Source: Escherichia coli (GTDB taxonomy: Bacteria; Pseudomonadota; Gammaproteobacteria; Enterobacterales; Enterobacteriaceae). Taken from it: a stretch of 64,000 bases of DNA. The stretch lies in assembly GCF_009931435.1 (NCBI RefSeq), contig NZ_CP043414.1; one strand, 5' to 3'. Each line of letters starts with the position of its first letter. Positions within the stretch are counted from its first letter, which is position 1. Positions 43,677 through 57,259 of the stretch are shown in pieces. A program made the translations under genes and the position numbers. The notes beneath the pieces are model-generated. The model saw only the letters and a program-made list of their open reading frames with translations, had not been told where the DNA came from and searched no databases.

Positions 43677-44735
43677 GTGGATAAGCCATTTCGAAGAATT
43701 TTGCTCATTAAGATGCGTTTTCATGGGGATATGTTATTAACTACTCCCGTCATTAGTTCGCTGAAAAAAAATTACCCTGACGCAAAAATCGATGTGCTGC
43801 TTTATCAGGATACCATCCCGATTCTGTCTGAAAATCCAGAGATTAACGCGCTCTACGGCATAAAAAATAAAAAAGCAAAAGCCTCAGAAAAAATTTCCAA
43901 CTTTTTTCATCTCATCAAGGTATTACGTGCCAATAAGTATGACCTTATCGTCAATCTTACCGATCAATGGATGGTTGCTATACTGGTTCGCTTATTAAAT
44001 GCCCGTGTGAAAATTTCCCAGGATTATCATCATCGGCAGTCTGCTTTTTGGCGTAAAAGCTTCACCCATCTGGTGCCGTTGCAGGGTGGAAATGTGGTGG
44101 AAAGTAACTTATCCGTGCTGACGCCACTGGGTCTCGAATCGTTGGTGAAGCAGACAACCATGAGTTACCCGCCTGCAAGCTGGAAACGAATGCGTCGCGA
44201 ACTTGATCACGCAGGTGTTGGACAAAATTATGTGGTTATCCAACCTACCGCGCGGCAAATCTTTAAATGCTGGGACAACGCCAAGTTTTCCGCTGTGATT
44301 GATGCCTTACATACACGTGGCTATGAAGTCGTTCTGACGTCCGGCCCGGATAAAGACGATCTGGCCTGCGTCAATGAAATTGCGCAGGGATGCCAGACGC
44401 CACCAGTAACGGCGTTGGCCGGAAAGGTAACCTTCCCGGAACTTGGTGCGTTAATCGATCATGCGCAGCTGTTTATTGGCGTTGATTCCGCACCGGCGCA
44501 CATTGCCGCTGCAGTTAATACGCCGCTGATATCGCTGTTTGGTGCGACAGACCATATTTTCTGGCGTCCCTGGTCAAATAACATGATTCAATTCTGGGCT
44601 GGAGATTACCGGGAAATGCCAACACGCGATCAGCGTGACCGAAATGAGATGTATCTTTCGGTTATTCCGGCGGCAGATGTCATTGCAGCTGTCGATAAAT
44701 TACTTCCCTCCTCCACGACAGGTACGTCGTTATGA
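43677..44735 (+). CDS. waaQ: LPS heptosyltransferase III
   Basis: Heptosyltransferase N-terminus (RILLIKMRFHGDMLLTTP, compare WaaC MRVLIVKTSSMGDVLHT); GTG start at 43677 assumed, true start may be a few codons downstream. Confidence 0.9.
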   Translation: MDKPFRRILLIKMRFHGDMLLTTPVISSLKKNYPDAKIDVLLYQDTIPILSENPEINALYGIKNKKAKASEKISNFFHLIKVLRANKYDLIVNLTDQWMVAILVRLLNARVKISQDYHHRQSAFWRKSFTHLVPLQGGNVVESNLSVLTPLGLESLVKQTTMSYPPASWKRMRRELDHAGVGQNYVVIQPTARQIFKCWDNAKFSAVIDALHTRGYEVVLTSGPDKDDLACVNEIAQGCQTPPVTALAGKVTFPELGALIDHAQLFIGVDSAPAHIAAAVNTPLISLFGATDHIFWRPWSNNMIQFWAGDYREMPTRDQRDRNEMYLSVIPAADVIAAVDKLLPSSTTGTSL

Positions 44736-45856
44736 TCGTTGCTTTTTGTTTATATAAATATTTTCCCTTTGGCGGTTTGCAGCGCGATTTTATGCGTATT
44801 GCTCAGACAGTCGCTGCCCGAGGTCATCATGTTCGGGTTTATACCCAGTCGTGGGAAGGCGAATGCCCTGATGTATTTGAACTGATCAACGTGCCGGTTA
44901 AATCGCATACTAATCACGGGCGCAATGCGGAGTATTTTGCCTGGGTGCAAAAACATTTACGTGAACATCCCGTCGATAGAGTCGTTGGATTCAACAAAAT
45001 GCCGGGGCTGGACGTTTATTATGCCGCTGATGTTTGTTATGCCGAGAAAGTGGCGCAGGAGAAAGGCTTTTTCTATCGCTTGACGTCACGTTATCGCCAT
45101 TATGCCGCCTTTGAGCGGGCAACCTTTGAACAGGGCAAGCCGACACAGTTGCTGATGCTGACGGACAAGCAAATCGCCGATTTCCAGAAACATTATCAGA
45201 CTGAAGCGGAGCGTTTTCATATTCTGCCACCGGGGATTTATCCTGATCGTAAATATAGCCAGCAGCCAGCCAATAGCCGTGAAATCTTCCGTAAGAAGAA
45301 TGGAATAACCGAACAACAATATTTATTGTTGCAGGTCGGTTCAGACTTCACGCGTAAAGGTGTTGATCGTTCCATTGAAGCACTTGCTTCATTACCGGAT
45401 TCGCTGCGCCACAACACATTGCTATATGTTGTTGGGCAGGATAAACCGCGAAAATTTGAGGCGCTGGCAGAAAAACGCGGCGTGCGCAGTAATGTTCACT
45501 TCTTCTCGGGGCGCAACGATGTCTCGGAATTAATGGCGGCGGCGGATTTATTACTGCATCCTGCCTACCAGGAAGCGGCGGGAATTGTGCTGCTGGAAGC
45601 GATTACTGCAGGATTACCGGTACTAACAACAGCCGTTTGTGGCTATGCGCGTTATATTGTTGACGCCAATTGCGGCGAGGCTATTGCTGAGCCATTCCGC
45701 CAGGAAACATTGAATGAGATTTTACGCAAAGCGTTAACGCAATCTTCATTGCGCCAGGCCTGGGCGGAAAATGCGCGACATTATGCTGATACACAAGATT
45801 TATACAGTCTGCCAGAGAAAGCAGCGGACATCATAACGGGTGGTCTGGATGGTTGA
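44732..45856 (+). CDS. waaG: LPS core alpha-1,3-glucosyltransferase I (GT4)
   Basis: 374-aa product matching WaaG. Confidence 0.95.
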
Positions 45857-46646
45857 ACTTAAAGAGCCGTTTGCCACGTTATGGCGCGGTAAAGATCCTT
45901 TTGAGGAAGTTAAAACCTTGCAGGGTGAGGTTTTTCGTGAACTGGAAACTCGCCGCACTCTGCGCTTTGAAATGGCGGGCAAAAGCTATTTTCTCAAATG
46001 GCATCGCGGCACGACCCTGAAAGAGATAATCAAAAATTTACTCTCATTGCGGATGCCAGTATTAGGCGCAGACCGCGAATGGAATGCGATTCATCGACTG
46101 CGGGATGTCGGCGTTGATACTATGTATGGGGTGGCATTCGGCGAAAAAGGCATTAATCCACTGACCAGAACCTCGTTTATTATAACCGAAGATCTGACAC
46201 CAACCATCAGTCTGGAAGATTACTGTGCTGACTGGGCGACTAACCCTCCAGATGTTCGCGTAAAGCGTATGCTTATTAAGCGTGTCGCGATGATGGTGCG
46301 CGATATGCATGCTGCGGGCATTAACCACCGTGACTGTTATATCTGTCATTTCCTGCTGCACTTGCCTTTTTCCGGTAAGGAAGAGGAGTTAAAAATTTCA
46401 GTAATTGACCTGCACCGGGCGCAGCTTCGCACGCGCGTTCCACGTCGTTGGCGCGATAAAGATCTTATTGGGCTTTATTTTTCTTCGATGAATATTGGCC
46501 TGACTCAGCGGGATATCTGGCGGTTCATGAAGGTGTATTTTGCTGCCCCGCTTAAAGACATTCTCAAGCAGGAACAAGGGCTGCTGTCGCAAGCAGAAGC
46601 AAAAGCCACAAAAATCAGGGAAAGAACGATTCGAAAATCGTTGTAA
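45849..46646 (+). CDS. waaP: LPS core heptose I kinase
   Basis: Start at [14 protein letters not shown] gives 265 aa. Confidence 0.95.
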
Positions 46647-46661
46647 TTTCCGGAGAGAAAT

Positions 46662-47678
46662 ATGAGTGCCCACTATTTTAATCCACAAGAGATGATCAAT
46701 AAGACAATCATCTTCGATGAAAGGCCAGAGGCGTCAGTGGCATCATCATTCCATGTTGCTTATGGCATTGATAAAAACTTTCTTTTTGGTTGTGGTGTTT
46801 CAATCACGTCAGTTTTGTTACATAACAACGACGTGAGTTTTGTCTTCCACGTTTTTATTGATGATATCCCTGACGCCGATATCCAGCGTTTATCCCAATT
46901 GGCGAAAAGCTATCATACCTGTATCCAGATCCATCTGGTAAATTGTGAACGGCTTAAGGTATTACCGACGACCAAAAATTGGTCTATTGCCATGTATTTC
47001 CGTTTTGTAATTGCAGATTACTTTATTGATCAACAAGATAAGATCCTGTACCTGGATGCTGATATCGCCTGTCAGGGAACCTTAAAACCGCTGATAACAA
47101 TGGATCTTGCCAATAACGTTGCTGCTGTTGTTACTGAACGCGATGCTAACTGGTGGTCGTTACGGGCTCAAAGTCTGCAGTGTAATGAACTTGAAAAGGG
47201 TTACTTTAATTCAGGTGTCCTGTTAATTAATACACTAGCGTGGGCGCAGGAGTCCGTTTCTGCTAAAGCGATGTCGATGCTTGCTGATAAAGCCGTCGTT
47301 TCCCGTTTAACCTATATGGATCAAGATATACTAAATCTTATCCTGTTAGGGAAAGTTAAATTCATTGATGCTAAATACAATACGCAATTTAGTTTAAATT
47401 ATGAATTAAAAAAATCATTTATTTGTCCAATTAATGATGAAACCGTATTAATTCATTATGTCGGCCCGACAAAACCCTGGCATTACTGGGCCGGTTATCC
47501 AAGCGCGCAGCCATTTATCAAAGCCAAAGAAGCATCGCCATGGAAAAATGAACCGTTAATGCGGCCAATTAACTCAAATTATGCTCGTTATTGCGCTAAG
47601 CATAATTTTAAACAAAATAAACCAATTAACGGGATAATGAATTATATTTATTATTTTTATTTAAAGATAATAAAATGA
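46662..47678 (+). CDS. waaO: GT8-family LPS outer-core glycosyltransferase; by position the R1-type WaaO
   Basis: 338-aa GT8 protein (DxD, YFNSGVLLIN motifs) immediately after waaP; AT-rich. Confidence 0.7.
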   Translation: MSAHYFNPQEMINKTIIFDERPEASVASSFHVAYGIDKNFLFGCGVSITSVLLHNNDVSFVFHVFIDDIPDADIQRLSQLAKSYHTCIQIHLVNCERLKVLPTTKNWSIAMYFRFVIADYFIDQQDKILYLDADIACQGTLKPLITMDLANNVAAVVTERDANWWSLRAQSLQCNELEKGYFNSGVLLINTLAWAQESVSAKAMSMLADKAVVSRLTYMDQDILNLILLGKVKFIDAKYNTQFSLNYELKKSFICPINDETVLIHYVGPTKPWHYWAGYPSAQPFIKAKEASPWKNEPLMRPINSNYARYCAKHNFKQNKPINGIMNYIYYFYLKIIK

Positions 47679-47694
47679 CATTGAGAAAAGTTAA

Positions 47695-48690
47695 ATGAAT
47701 GAATTTATAAAAGAACGGTTTTCGTATTTAGCAGATAATAAAAAAGAAAACGTCCCAGAGCTAAATGTTTCCTACGGTATCGATAAGAATTTTTTGTATG
47801 GTGCTGGCGTTTCAATTTCTTCCGTTTTGATTAATAATTCAGATATTAATTTTGTCTTTCATGTTTTCACTGATTATGTGGATGATGATTATTTAAAGTC
47901 ATTTAATGAAACAGCAAAACAATTTAATACCTCAATTATTGTATATTTAATTGACCCAAAATACTTTGCTGATCTACCGACGTCACAGTTTTGGTCGTAC
48001 GCGACATACTTCAGGGTATTGTCCTTTGAATATCTGAGTGAAAGTATTTCCACACTGCTGTATCTGGATGCCGATGTCGTTTGTAAAGGAAGTCTGAAAC
48101 CTCTCACAAAAATTATATTTAAAGATGAGTTTGCTGCGGTTATTCCTGACAATGATAGTACTCAGGCGGCATGTGCAAAACGTCTTAACATTCCCGAAAT
48201 GAATGGACGTTATTTCAATGCAGGCGTTATCTATGTCAATCTTAAAAAATGGCATGAAGCAAATTTGACACCGTATTTACTCAAACTTTTACGAGGGGAA
48301 ACTAAATATGGCTCTCTTAAATATTTAGATCAGGATGCGTTGAATATCGCATTTAATATGAATAATATCTACCTTGCGAAGGATTTTGATACTATTTATA
48401 CCCTGAAAAACGAACTTTATGATCGTAGTCATCGAAAGTATCAGCAAACCATTACCGATAAAACAGTGTTGATTCACTATACAGGGATAACTAAACCATG
48501 GCATAGCTGGGCTGGATATCCGTCTGCATCATACTTTAATATCGCGCGTGAACAATCTCCCTGGAAGAAATATCCTCTTAAAGAGGCGCGGACTGTTGCA
48601 GAAATGCAGAAACAATATAAGCATCTGTTTGCCCATGGTGAGTATATAAAAGGCATAACTTCATTAATTAAGTACAAGCTTAAGAAATAA
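47695..48690 (+). CDS. waaT: GT8-family LPS outer-core glycosyltransferase; by position the R1-type WaaT
   Basis: 331-aa GT8 paralog (LDADVVCKG, YFNAGVIYVN). Confidence 0.65.
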   Translation: MNEFIKERFSYLADNKKENVPELNVSYGIDKNFLYGAGVSISSVLINNSDINFVFHVFTDYVDDDYLKSFNETAKQFNTSIIVYLIDPKYFADLPTSQFWSYATYFRVLSFEYLSESISTLLYLDADVVCKGSLKPLTKIIFKDEFAAVIPDNDSTQAACAKRLNIPEMNGRYFNAGVIYVNLKKWHEANLTPYLLKLLRGETKYGSLKYLDQDALNIAFNMNNIYLAKDFDTIYTLKNELYDRSHRKYQQTITDKTVLIHYTGITKPWHSWAGYPSASYFNIAREQSPWKKYPLKEARTVAEMQKQYKHLFAHGEYIKGITSLIKYKLKK

Positions 48691-48699
48691 ATTACTCTT

Positions 48700-49392
48700 A
48701 TGATTACAAGTATACGTTATCGCGGCTTCTCATTTTATTACAAAGATAATGATAATAAATATAAAGAAATCTTTGATGAAATACTGGCCTATAATTTTAA
48801 AACAGTAAAAGTATTACGTAATATTGATGATACCAAAGTATCGTTGATTGATACGAAATATGGTCGCTATGTTTTTAAAGTCTTTGCTCCGAAAACGAAA
48901 AGGAATGAACGTTTTTTAAAATCTTTTGTAAAAGGTGACTACTATCAGAATTTGATCGTTGAAACCGATCGTGTCAGAAGTGCAGGTCTTACTTTTCCTA
49001 ATGATTTTTATTTTCTGGCTGAGCGTAAAATTTTCAACTATGCCAGTGTTTTTATCATGCTTATCGAGTATGTCGAGGGCGTAGAGCTCAATGATATGCC
49101 GATTATTCCAGAAAATGTTAAAGCAGAAATTAAGGTTTCAATGGAAAAATTGCATGCCTTAAATATGCTATCGGGCGACCCACACCGGGGTAACTTTATC
49201 GTTAGTAAAGATGGTGTCAGGATAATTGACCTATCCGGTAAAAGCTGTACGGCAGAGCGTAAAGCTCGTGATCGTCTGGCCATGGAACGTCACCTGGGTA
49301 TTGCCAACGAAATAAAAGATTATGGCTACTATTCAGTAATCTACAGAACCAAACTACGCAAATTTATTAAAAAATTAAAAGGCAAAGCGTAA
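48700..49392 (+). CDS. waaY: LPS core heptose II kinase
   Basis: 230-aa kinase-like protein between GT8 genes, as WaaY in waa clusters. Confidence 0.8.
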   Translation: MITSIRYRGFSFYYKDNDNKYKEIFDEILAYNFKTVKVLRNIDDTKVSLIDTKYGRYVFKVFAPKTKRNERFLKSFVKGDYYQNLIVETDRVRSAGLTFPNDFYFLAERKIFNYASVFIMLIEYVEGVELNDMPIIPENVKAEIKVSMEKLHALNMLSGDPHRGNFIVSKDGVRIIDLSGKSCTAERKARDRLAMERHLGIANEIKDYGYYSVIYRTKLRKFIKKLKGKA

Positions 49393-49417
49393 ACCACACA
49401 GTCAAAACGGAACCAAC

Positions 49418-50446
49418 ATGGATTTATTAGCTGAGAGTATTACTGAAGTCGCTGTCTCTGGGGAAATTGCTAACACCGATCGTGTGTTAAATATCGCTTA
49501 CGGTATTGACCGTAATTTTTTATTTGGTGCGGCAGTATCTATGCAATCAGTTGTTATGCATAACCCGGACCTTGCGGTTAAGTTTCATCTCTTTACCGAC
49601 TACATTGATGAAGATTATCTACAACGTGTTAACGCTTTTACCAGCAAAAATGCTAACGTTGAAGTAAGAATTTATAAAGTCTCCAGTGCCTTTATTGATA
49701 TCTTCCCCAGCCTGAAACAGTGGTCTTATGCAACATTCTTCCGTTTAGTTGCGTTCCAGTATCTGAGTGAAACTATTGAAAATCTGTTATATATCGATGC
49801 TGATGTCATCTGTAAAGGCTCATTAGCTGGATTGCTTGATATTAATTTTGACGGCGATAAGTTTGCAGCTGTTATTAAAGATGTGCCTTTTATGCAGGAA
49901 AAACCAGCGAAGCGTCTGGCTATAGAGGGACTTCCAGGGAATTATTTCAACGCTGGTGTAGTATATCTGCAGCTTGAAGCATGGTCGAAAAATGATTTTA
50001 TGAACAAAGCCATTGCTATGCTGGCAAGTGACCCGCAGCACACGAAATATAAATGCCTTGATCAGGATATTTTAAATATTCTGTTCTTTGGTCATTGTAT
50101 TTTTATTAGCGGCGATTATGATTGCTTTTATGGCATTGACTATGAGTTAAAAAATAAAAGCAATGAAGATTATAAAAAGACCATTACCGATGATACTAAG
50201 CTGATTCATTATGTTGGCGTAACGAAGCCCTGGAACGACTGGACAAATTATCCCTGCCAGAAGTATTTTAATGAGGCTTATCAGGCTTCTTGCTGGAATG
50301 ATGTGGCGTTTATTCCAGCCACGAATGAAAAGCAGTATCAAGTGAAATACCAACATGCAAAGAAAAATGGTGATACGTTTAACGCTTTCATTTACTTCAT
50401 TAAATTCAAATTAAATAAGTATAAAAGAAAACTATTTGGGCAATAA
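49418..50446 (+). CDS. waaW: GT8-family LPS outer-core glycosyltransferase; by position the R1-type WaaW
   Basis: 342-aa GT8 paralog (IDADVICKG, YFNAGVVYLQ). Confidence 0.65.
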   Translation: MDLLAESITEVAVSGEIANTDRVLNIAYGIDRNFLFGAAVSMQSVVMHNPDLAVKFHLFTDYIDEDYLQRVNAFTSKNANVEVRIYKVSSAFIDIFPSLKQWSYATFFRLVAFQYLSETIENLLYIDADVICKGSLAGLLDINFDGDKFAAVIKDVPFMQEKPAKRLAIEGLPGNYFNAGVVYLQLEAWSKNDFMNKAIAMLASDPQHTKYKCLDQDILNILFFGHCIFISGDYDCFYGIDYELKNKSNEDYKKTITDDTKLIHYVGVTKPWNDWTNYPCQKYFNEAYQASCWNDVAFIPATNEKQYQVKYQHAKKNGDTFNAFIYFIKFKLNKYKRKLFGQ

Positions 50447-50524
50447 AAATCATGGATGTCTGAGTTACAATAATAATTAAGGATGAGTACTATCATATTT
50501 TATTAGTTCAGGCAAGAGAACACG

Positions 50525-51508
50525 ATGAGCAATGATTACCCTTTAGTATCCATAATAATACCGACGTATAATTCATCTGATTACATTACTGAAACTCTAA
50601 CGAAATTAGAAAAACAAACTTACCCAAATTTTGAAATTGTTATTGTTAATGATGGTTCTAAAGATAACACATCAAACGTTTTGAGAGAGTATGGGTTAAC
50701 CCACTCGCAATTAATTATTATCAATAAAGAAAATGGCGGTGTTTCGTCTGCCAGGAATACAGGTATCCGCAAGGCGCAAGGACAGTTTATATGTTTTATG
50801 GATGATGATGATGAGATAGATCCTAACTATCTGCTGAAGATGTATTCCAGACAACATGAGACGGGAGGGGATGCGATTTATTGTGGGCTTTATGGCCATC
50901 ATATAAAAAATGGTGTTACTTACTCACCTATAAATACAGAGTTTAATGAAGGGTCTTTACTTTTCGACTTTTTTTATAAAAAGGTCAGATTCCATATAGG
51001 GTGCTTGTTTATAAGAAAACAACTCCTGGAAGATAATAATCTTTTTTTTGATGAAGATTTACGACTAGGAGAAGATCTGGATTTTATCTATCGACTGCTA
51101 ATTACATGCGATATGTATGCGGTTCCATATTATATGTATAAGCATAACTATAGAGAAAATTCCTTAATGAACTCATGTAGAACCATCACTCATTATCGAC
51201 ATGAGTCATTTGCGCACGAAAGAATCTACTCTTCTGTGATGCAGTTATACAAAGGTAACCGGAAAGAAGAAATTCATACATTATTGAGTAAAAATAGAAC
51301 TTATCATAAAACTCGTTATTTATGGAATGTTCTACTTAATGGCGATTTTGAATTATTAAATCAATTAGTTGAAAGCAATGAAAAAGAATTGAAAGATTGT
51401 AATCTTCTTGGCAAGAGAGATAAGAGGCGAGCAAAAATATTAGCATCAAAAAACTATATTCTCTGGAGGATGGTAAGACTGGTAAATAGAAAAAAGAATA
51501 AACGTTAG
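50525..51508 (+). CDS. waaV: GT2-family glycosyltransferase; by position the R1-type WaaV
   Basis: 327-aa protein with the GT2 N-terminus VSIIIPTYNSSDYI...VIVNDGSKDNT and DDDD motif. Confidence 0.65.
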   Translation: MSNDYPLVSIIIPTYNSSDYITETLTKLEKQTYPNFEIVIVNDGSKDNTSNVLREYGLTHSQLIIINKENGGVSSARNTGIRKAQGQFICFMDDDDEIDPNYLLKMYSRQHETGGDAIYCGLYGHHIKNGVTYSPINTEFNEGSLLFDFFYKKVRFHIGCLFIRKQLLEDNNLFFDEDLRLGEDLDFIYRLLITCDMYAVPYYMYKHNYRENSLMNSCRTITHYRHESFAHERIYSSVMQLYKGNRKEEIHTLLSKNRTYHKTRYLWNVLLNGDFELLNQLVESNEKELKDCNLLGKRDKRRAKILASKNYILWRMVRLVNRKKNKR

Positions 51509-51553
51509 GTCTTCCATTAAATAACCCATCCTCGTAGCATAGGTTGAAATTAT

Positions 51554-52807
51554 ATGTCGTTTTGTTGGAATGAAATTAACTCTGGTGTCAAGTCTTTAAC
51601 TCTCATATTATGTATGTTGTCTTTAATGACTTTGTCTTTGTGGGATGATGTTGCAACAAAGTTTCTTCATGCAGCTGGAATTATATCTGCATTATATTTT
51701 CTAGCGACACCAAAAAAAACAATAACTAATAATCCTACGTTGTTAATTTTCATCTCATTATGTCTTTTGGGTATCGTTAATATCATCTGGTATTCACATT
51801 ATAAAGTTTCAGGCTCGGTTTATACCAATGCATATCGTGGCCCAATGGAAACTGGAAAAATTGCCTTGTGTAGTGCTTTTATTTTCTTAGTTCTTTTTGC
51901 TAAAGATGAGATGAGAACCAAAATAAAATTTGGGAAACTAATTCTGTTCGCATCCCTGGCAACGCAGTTACTTTTTTTTGCGCATGCCATGTGGCAACAT
52001 TTCTATTTAAACGTCGACCGTGTTGCATTATCAGCTTCCCACGCTACAACAGCAGGCTACATCATCCTTTTCCCTTCTTTACTGGCATCAATTCTCATTT
52101 TAAAATCCGACTTTAGACATAAAACAACATTATATACAATTAACTTCATGCTTAGCTTATGTGCTGTTATAGTAACTGAAACGCGTGCAGCCATATTAGT
52201 GTTTCCATTCTTTGCGTTACTATTAATCGTAATGGATAGTTATATTAATAAGCGAATTAATTATAAGTTATATTGTTTTATTGCGATTGCATTATTAGCA
52301 GGTGTATTTTCTTTTAAAGATACATTACTTACGAGAATGAATGACTTAAATAGGGATTTAGTTAATTATTCGCATGATAACACCAGAACTTCAGTCGGTG
52401 CCCGTCTGGCAATGTATGAAGTTGGTTTAAAAACATATTCTCCAATAGGACAATCACTGGAAAAACGCGCGGAAAAAATACATGAACTAGAAGAGAAAGA
52501 GCCTAGATTAAGTGGCGCTTTACCCTTTGTAGATTCTCATTTGCATAACGATCTCATAGATACGTTATCAACGCGTGGTATTCCTGGAGTAGTATTAACA
52601 ATTTTAGCCTTTTCAGCAATATTCATATATGCCTTAAGAACTGCTAAAGAACCTTATATTTTAATCTTGCTTTTTTCACTACTGGTAGTAGGCCTAAGTG
52701 ATGTAATACTCTTTTCTAAACCGGTTCCGACTGCTGTGTTTGTCACCATAATATTGCTTTGTGCTTATTTTAAAGCACAATCGGACCAATGTTTATTAGA
52801 TAAGTAA
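51554..52807 (+). CDS. waaL: O-antigen ligase
   Basis: 417-aa highly hydrophobic polytopic protein at the end of the waaQ operon. Confidence 0.8.
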   Translation: MSFCWNEINSGVKSLTLILCMLSLMTLSLWDDVATKFLHAAGIISALYFLATPKKTITNNPTLLIFISLCLLGIVNIIWYSHYKVSGSVYTNAYRGPMETGKIALCSAFIFLVLFAKDEMRTKIKFGKLILFASLATQLLFFAHAMWQHFYLNVDRVALSASHATTAGYIILFPSLLASILILKSDFRHKTTLYTINFMLSLCAVIVTETRAAILVFPFFALLLIVMDSYINKRINYKLYCFIAIALLAGVFSFKDTLLTRMNDLNRDLVNYSHDNTRTSVGARLAMYEVGLKTYSPIGQSLEKRAEKIHELEEKEPRLSGALPFVDSHLHNDLIDTLSTRGIPGVVLTILAFSAIFIYALRTAKEPYILILLFSLLVVGLSDVILFSKPVPTAVFVTIILLCAYFKAQSDQCLLDK

Positions 52808-54916: not shown

Positions 54917-55849
54917 TTATGCGTCGCGATTCAGCCAGGCCATGTATTCCGTTACACCTTCAGCAACGGTTTTGAACGGTTTGTCGTAACCCGCCGCGCG
55001 CAGATTCGTCAGATCTGCCTGAGTGAACGCCTGATAGCGGCCTTTCAGTTTATCCGGGAACGGAATGTATTCGATCTGGCCTTTCTTGTGATAAGCAAGC
55101 GTAGCATCTGCTACTGCCTGGAAGGATTCTGCACGACCGGTGCCGAGGTTGAAGATGCCGGAAACGCCGTTTTCCAGGAACCACAGATTCACATCAGCCA
55201 CGTCGCCCACATAGACGAAGTCACGTTTGAAGTTCTCGCTACCTTCGAACAGCTTCGGTGATTCACCGTTGTTAAGCTGAGTGTTGAGATGGAAAGCGAC
55301 GCTCGCCATGCTGCCTTTATGGCCTTCACGCGGTCCATAAACGTTGAAATAGCGGAAGCCAACAATCTGCGAGTTCGCTTCTGGCAGGATTTGGCGAACA
55401 TATTCATCAAACAGGAATTTTGAGTAACCGTAGACGTTCAACGGTTTTTCGTACTCGCGGGATTCAATAAAGTCGGAGGTGCGACCGCCGTAAGTGGCCG
55501 CGGAAGAAGCGTACAGGAACGGGATTTCGCGTTCCAGACAGTAGTGCAGCAGCTCTTTGGAGTATTGATAGTTGTTATCCATCATATACTTGCCATCCCA
55601 CTCGGTGGTGGAAGAGCACGCGCCTTCGTGGAAAATCGCTTCGACATCGCCGAACTCTTCGCCAGCCATAATCTGGATCAGGAAGTCTTCCTTATCCATA
55701 TAGTCCGCGATATCCAGATCCACCAGGTTCACAAACTTGGTGCCGTCTTTCAGGTTGTCCACCACCAGAATATCGGTGATGCCTTTGTCATTCAGGGCTT
55801 TAACGATGTTGCTGCCGATAAAGCCCGCGCCGCCGGTAACGATGATCAT
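54917..55849 (-). CDS. hldD: ADP-L-glycero-D-manno-heptose 6-epimerase
   Basis: 310-aa [23 protein letters not shown]... (Rossmann GxxGxxG) matches HldD (RfaD). Confidence 0.95.
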
Positions 55850-56062
55850 AACTGTAACCTTCGAATTATGGAGTCAGAGACAATCTCAGACACGAATGCT
55901 TCTATCATATCACTACACGGCGTTGGCTTCAGCCATTCGCCAAAAGTGAGATTGATGGACGTTATTTATCCTGAATTTTGCAGAAGTGTTAACGCGTCAT
56001 CTCGTCGCAACCTATAAGTTTGGGTAATATGTGCTGGAATTTGCCCTGTCTGGAGAATCGCA

Positions 56063-57259
56063 ATGCGTGGAGAATTTTATCAGCAGTTAACCAACGATCT
56101 GGAAACCGCAAGGGCGGAAGGGTTGTTTAAAGAAGAGCGCATTATTACGTCTGCGCAACAAGCAGACATCACTGTGGCTGATGGAAGCCACGTCATTAAC
56201 TTTTGTGCCAATAACTATCTCGGACTGGCGAATCATCCGGATCTGATTGCGGCGGCAAAGGCGGGAATGGATTCTCACGGTTTCGGCATGGCTTCAGTAC
56301 GTTTTATCTGCGGCACTCAGGACAGCCATAAAGAGCTTGAACAAAAACTGGCGGCCTTCCTGGGGATGGAAGATGCGATTCTCTACTCTTCCTGCTTTGA
56401 TGCTAACGGTGGCCTGTTCGAAACGCTGTTGGGCGCGGAAGACGCCATTATCTCCGACGCACTGAACCACGCGTCTATTATTGATGGTGTGCGTCTGTGC
56501 AAAGCTAAACGCTATCGTTATGCCAACAACGATATGCAGGAGCTGGAAGCACGTCTGAAAGAAGCGCGTGAAGCCGGTGCGCGTCATGTGCTGATTGCCA
56601 CCGATGGTGTGTTCTCGATGGACGGCGTGATTGCCAACCTGAAAGGTGTTTGCGATCTGGCAGATAAATACGATGCCCTGGTGATGGTAGACGACTCCCA
56701 CGCCGTTGGTTTTGTCGGTGAAAATGGTCGTGGTTCCCATGAATACTGCGATGTGATGGGCCGGGTCGATATTATCACCGGCACGCTCGGTAAAGCGCTG
56801 GGCGGGGCGTCTGGTGGTTATACCGCGGCGCGCAAAGAAGTGGTTGAGTGGCTGCGCCAGCGTTCTCGTCCGTACCTGTTCTCCAACTCGTTGGCACCGG
56901 CCATTGTTGCCGCTTCCATCAAAGTGTTGGAGATGGTTGAAGCGGGTAGCGAGCTGCGTGACCGTCTGTGGGCGAACGCGCGTCAGTTCCGTGAGCAAAT
57001 GTCGGCGGCGGGCTTTACCCTGGCGGGTGCCGATCACGCCATTATTCCGGTCATGCTTGGCGATGCTGTAGTGGCGCAAAAATTTGCACGTGAACTGCAA
57101 AAAGAGGGCATTTACGTCACCGGTTTCTTCTATCCGGTCGTTCCGAAAGGTCAGGCGCGTATTCGTACCCAGATGTCTGCGGCGCATACCCCTGAGCAAA
57201 TTACGCGTGCGGTAGAAGCGTTCACGCGTATTGGTAAACAACTGGGCGTAATCGCCTGA
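56063..57259 (+). CDS. kbl: 2-amino-3-ketobutyrate CoA ligase
   Basis: 398-aa PLP enzyme matching Kbl. Confidence 0.95.

Follow-up and report, generated by a model that had tools for sequence, protein, structure and literature searches.

In Escherichia coli K-12, the genes kbl and hldD are separated by a third gene, htrL (yibB). The MG1655 order kbl-htrL-hldD (b3617–b3619) places the start codons of kbl and hldD 1435 bp apart, with htrL (b3618, 858 bp) lying between them, as an earlier note on the DNA analyzed here had stated; it is on the kbl strand. The K-12 HtrL protein matches the Pfam family HtrL_YibB (PF09612) with E = 8e-131, a family of unknown function, and a sequence search of the PDB with HtrL returned no relative among solved structures (best E = 0.24). 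Genes of the HtrL_YibB family occur in the LPS/LOS loci of several genera (PMC4172580). In addition, htrL/yibB was found to be variably present among UTI isolates, and its accessory status is already known from that pan-genome comparison (PMC8303582).

The K-12 block that carries htrL has a GC content of 36%, compared with 51–54% in kbl and hldD, and htrL is preceded in it by a strong promoter-like site, TATACA-18-TATAAT, and followed by an intrinsic terminator. With its own signals, the block has the look of a self-contained gene cassette acquired horizontally. AT-rich foreign DNA is silenced by H-NS. A genomic SELEX study (PMC3946193) gives the same promoter hexamers for htrL and reports H-NS binding at the htrL/hldD spacer.

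The window, i.e., the whole 64,000-nucleotide stretch of E. coli chromosomal DNA that was analyzed, presents a shorter arrangement at this locus. The hldD gene lies at 54917–55849 on the minus strand (Pfam Epimerase, E = 4e-45), followed downstream on the same strand by waaF and then waaC. The kbl gene, encoding 2-amino-3-ketobutyrate CoA ligase (glycine C-acetyltransferase), lies at 56063–57259 on the plus strand (Pfam Aminotran_1_2, E = 2e-78), with the co-oriented threonine dehydrogenase gene tdh at 57273–58298. All three are ORFs of the window and are annotated in RefSeq strain 2020CK-00188, the source of annotation used here, which is 100% identical over window positions 55400–56500. The divergent spacer between the start codons of hldD and kbl, at 55850–56062, measures exactly the 213 bp given in the earlier note, contains no htrL, and has a GC content of 43%. 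On the far side of tdh, the tdh-waaH spacer (58299–58709) is 411 bp long in the window versus 238 bp in K-12, the additional length being made up of palindromes of the REP/BIME type (GCCTGATGCGCTACGCTTATC... and GTAGGCCGGATAAGGCGTTTACGCCGCATCCGGCA).

The same appearance would arise if htrL, a small gene or an RNA had gone uncalled in the spacer, or if the junction had been misassembled. Nothing was found in favor of either. The spacer does hold tiny ORFs, one of 20 aa (55846–55908, minus strand) and one of 40 aa, but these overlap promoter and leader elements and gene starts. Every ORF of at least 20 aa reaching into the spacer is either an antisense shadow of hldD or kbl or no longer than 40 aa. 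A search for a gene overlooked by the ORF caller, a possibility raised in the earlier note, ended without a credible candidate. A tblastn search with K-12 HtrL as the query found no homologue anywhere in the 64-kb window (best E = 5.7), and no Rfam family matched within 55700–56200. Moreover, 3465 finished genomes have this very junction in contiguous form, and we regard an artifact or a missed gene as highly improbable. The absence of htrL between hldD and kbl, as read previously from the letters of the window, is borne out by the tblastn search, the ORF check and the 213-bp spacer.

The comparison with MG1655 shows where the two arrangements part. The genes on either side agree in orientation and are ~97% identical. 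Also shared are the 104 bp immediately upstream of kbl and ~63–88 bp upstream of hldD, the latter with the −10 element, the block resembling a −35 element and the leader hairpin described below. Between these shared parts, a strict alignment sets 1267 bp of the K-12 block opposite 46 bp of the window (55913–55958), and a permissive alignment sets 1242 bp opposite 21 bp (55938–55958). The first base of the kbl-side homology with K-12 is position 55959.

To place the two arrangements within the species, a 1.1-kb query across the hldD-kbl junction was searched in 5426 complete E. coli genomes, 5424 of which gave a match. The contiguous, htrL-less layout was found in 3465 of the 5426 (64%), including UTI89 and LF82, and the remaining matches were split at the spacer. 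The K-12 htrL block is present in 1959 genomes (36%), always on the chromosome, including K-12, O157:H7 and O103:H2. The two counts add up to 5424, i.e., all genomes that have the locus, implying that htrL has not been relocated elsewhere in the htrL-less genomes. Thus, the suggestion that the locus could serve as a strain-background marker holds, since the 5424 genomes divide cleanly into these two groups. A class of matches at 92.5% identity was considered as a third layout and rejected, because it reflects a divergent hldD allele whose annotated spacer is also 213 bp.

In E. coli PKF8 (L084, 5500–6700), the locus is in a third, rare state: an IS1 element adjoins 202 bp left over from the htrL block, and the remainder of htrL has been deleted together with kbl, tdh and most of waaH. 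The idea that htrL is tied to the outer-core type was rejected on two examples: PKF8 has R1-type genes together with htrL remnants, and FORC 064 carries waaL in the hldD operon, yet is without htrL. The window itself has an R1-like waa outer-core operon at 43677–52807, comprising waaQ-G-P-O, a GT8 gene, waaY, a waaW-like gene, a GT2 gene and waaL, the last of which is encoded on the other strand from hldD. In the window, the waaW-like ORF (49418–50446, 342 aa) is intact; in 2020CK-00188, it is annotated as frameshifted.

The earlier note described htrL as missing, which implies a loss, and this part of its reading is not borne out by the wider comparison. Kbl-probed loci were taken from 80 species-representative Enterobacteriaceae genomes, in 78 of which hldD and kbl were both on the contig. 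In 67 of these 78 species, the two genes are separated by a divergent spacer of 202–229 bp, most commonly 215–216 bp, with S. enterica arizonae at the lower end (202 bp) and E. albertii at exactly 213 bp, the length and very nearly the sequence of the spacer in the window. Citrobacter, Enterobacter, Klebsiella and other genera, like E. albertii and Salmonella, have the same divergent adjacent genes, a spacer within the 202–229 bp range and the same order of blocks, and differ from the window only by ordinary sequence divergence in the unconserved center. Because the short spacer is the majority state within E. coli and is shared so widely among the outgroup species, we consider it, with a probability of roughly 90%, to be the ancestral state of the family, which the window retains without anything having been deleted.

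The window carries the common ancestral allele in each of the features that were compared. Its hldD and kbl genes are adjacent and divergently transcribed, its spacer falls within the ancestral length at 213 bp with neither an insertion nor a credible ORF, and this spacer is collinear with those of the outgroups across the center, with all conserved blocks present in both an alignment of 20 genera (A1) and an alignment of 79 loci (A2). Both features tested as typical of K-12, i.e., an HtrL_YibB gene between kbl and hldD and a linked hldD-promoter haplotype (TGGTATGATTAC...CATCACAT), are absent from the window.

An opposite history would have the ancestors of this strain carrying htrL, followed by deletion or by replacement with an htrL-less E. 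coli spacer. The occurrence of htrL at the same site in some Escherichia and Citrobacter genomes shows that the cassette did not arrive very recently, recombination is known for the waa region, and core type does not dictate htrL status, as PKF8 and FORC 064 illustrate, all of which would give such a loss some room. However, the spacer of the window is collinear base for base with those of E. albertii, Citrobacter and Salmonella, and this holds through the central segment missing from K-12. Neither a scar nor any htrL fragment or AT-rich remnant is present in this 43% GC spacer. A simple deletion could not have rebuilt the ancestral center; allelic replacement could, but the product would again be the ancestral allele. 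Secondary loss is thus unlikely, although a lineage-specific return from an htrL-bearing to the ancestral allele through recombination might have taken place in the strain of the window. 

Under the favored reading of a retained ancestral spacer, the K-12 state is the derived one: K-12 and roughly a third of E. coli strains carry a horizontally acquired, AT-rich cassette composed of the htrL promoter, htrL and its terminator, located in the ~25-bp unconserved center of the spacer, between the two sets of promoter elements.

These promoter elements are assigned by conservation and by resemblance to consensus, from which we infer their positions. On the hldD side, the putative extended −10 element, TGATATGAT (TGnTATGAT), is located at 55904–55912 on the minus strand, and its TG and TATGAT are invariant in 79 of 79 aligned loci. 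A conserved GGCTGAAG block at 55927–55934 on the same strand, 17 bp upstream of the −10 element, is the putative −35 element, matching 3 of the 6 consensus positions. The sequence CTTCAGCC is kept in most genera of A1, as well as in K-12 and in the htrL-bearing Citrobacter loci. Downstream, RNAalifold on the 79 loci predicts a hairpin in the hldD 5′ leader at 55874–55890 (minus strand), with compensatory changes at 4 of its 7 pairs; one pair is AU in 43 loci and GC in 30, and another is AU in 65 and GC in 10. This hairpin, for which no Rfam family was matched, is found in htrL-bearing and htrL-less alleles alike and may be an mRNA-stabilizing or regulatory stem. Transcription of hldD-waaF-waaC would accordingly be driven by GGCTGAAG-N17-TGATATGAT, the transcript then passing through the leader hairpin.

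On the kbl side, a block with the consensus CGTGATTTATGCTGCAAAA at 55959–55983 (plus strand) is nearly invariant in A1 and is a candidate Lrp site, its likeness to the Lrp consensus being our own reading. The putative core promoter of kbl-tdh follows at 55994–56030 on the plus strand and consists mostly of columns that are invariant in A1. It begins with a conserved GCGTCATCTCGT (55994–56005), which includes the −35 region at about 56002–56007, and ends with a putative −10 element, TAATAT, at 56025–56030 within a conserved TTTGGGTAATATGTGC (56019–56034). In Salmonella, an up-mutation at −60 relative to kbl has been assigned to the −35 element, with Lrp sites reported further upstream (PMC6593847). 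The Salmonella data fit a −10 element at 56025–56030 and a −35 element near 56002–56007. Thus, kbl-tdh may be driven by the TAATAT −10 element together with a weak −35 element, with conserved Lrp-type sites upstream. A simple consensus scan of the spacer found neither a sigma-70 promoter nor a terminator. The likely promoters do not satisfy its rules, the −35 element of kbl being weak and that of hldD matching only half of its positions.

The earlier proposal that the two promoters share this short region is right insofar as both lie within the 213 bp; however, they stand back to back and do not overlap. Between them lies the center (window 55935–55958), which is poorly conserved in A1 and is the position of the insertion in K-12 and in other taxa. 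K-12 retains every conserved block on either side, flanking the insertion point, and since the insertion falls between the two sets of elements, both operons would keep their core signals in either allele. The alleles differ in the AT-rich, H-NS-bound DNA upstream of the K-12 hldD −35 element and in the haplotype between the −35 and −10 elements. From the sequence comparison, the regulatory difference between the alleles is probably modest, and we infer that the allele difference is functionally neutral. The change in local regulation raised in the earlier note is possible for upstream elements only, and if regulation does differ, it is K-12 that has changed. K-12 hldD (htrM) is said to possess a heat-shock promoter, reportedly described by Raina and Georgopoulos in 1991. 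Any K-12 hldD promoter located inside the inserted block would be absent from the window. Reviews describe the hldD operon as heat-induced.

The center of the spacer is occupied by other insertions elsewhere in the family. The htrL gene is found at the same site in one Escherichia sp. (MOD1-EC7003, L003) and in three Citrobacter genomes, the proteins having 96% and 79–85% amino-acid identity to that of K-12, respectively, so that the insertion must be either old or have moved between genera. At the point corresponding to the K-12 htrL insertion, the Citrobacter youngae group (L006:2696–3847, L007 and L008) carries instead a gene for a 383-aa GT4 glycosyltransferase (Glycos_transf_1/Glyco_transf_4). 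Five genomes of Lelliottia, Enterobacter, Huaxiibacter and Pseudenterobacter (L025:3754–3884, L026, L031, L036 and L044) have an ERIC-like non-coding repeat of 131–144 bp, which we take to be related to ERIC from its match to the ERIC1R and ERIC2 primers (16 of 19 and 14 of 17 positions, respectively). For all three kinds of insertion, i.e., htrL block, GT4 gene and ERIC-like repeat, the junctions fall at the equivalent of window positions 55934–55959. These occupants thus share the same central ~25 bp and differ in cargo, and the spacer of the window is without any insertion.

A further difference between the alleles concerns the sequence between the −35 and −10 elements of hldD, which was compared over window positions 55898–55937. 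The htrL-bearing loci of both Escherichia and Citrobacter (K-12, L001:6398–6440; L003; L017; L068) have their own haplotype between the −35-like block and the −10 element, and the htrL-less loci of the two genera have another in common. The window has the latter, TGATATGATAG...CACTACAC, as do the htrL-less E. albertii and C. braakii. That the htrL-bearing haplotype is common to different genera suggests that the cassette travels with the flanking spacer by homologous recombination. Tentatively, and at somewhat less than even odds, we propose that the spacer center serves recurrently as a landing site, both for accessory LPS genes and for mobile repeats of small size, and that the htrL cassette moves between Escherichia and Citrobacter by homologous recombination in its flanks, bringing along its own variant of the hldD promoter. 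This reading of a landing site with a co-transferred promoter variant is the one mildly new point of the analysis, and if it is true, htrL status also marks a different hldD promoter allele.

The absence of htrL in the window is real, ordinary and of little consequence. It corrects an expectation centered on K-12, in that the reference strain has the insertion and the window has the default enterobacterial layout. Among finished E. coli genomes, htrL is a clean binary marker, 64% being without it and 36% with it, and studies of hldD or kbl promoter regulation in K-12 have used a derived, H-NS-bound spacer. For most strains, the conserved blocks point to the probable positions of the hldD-waaFC and kbl-tdh core promoters.
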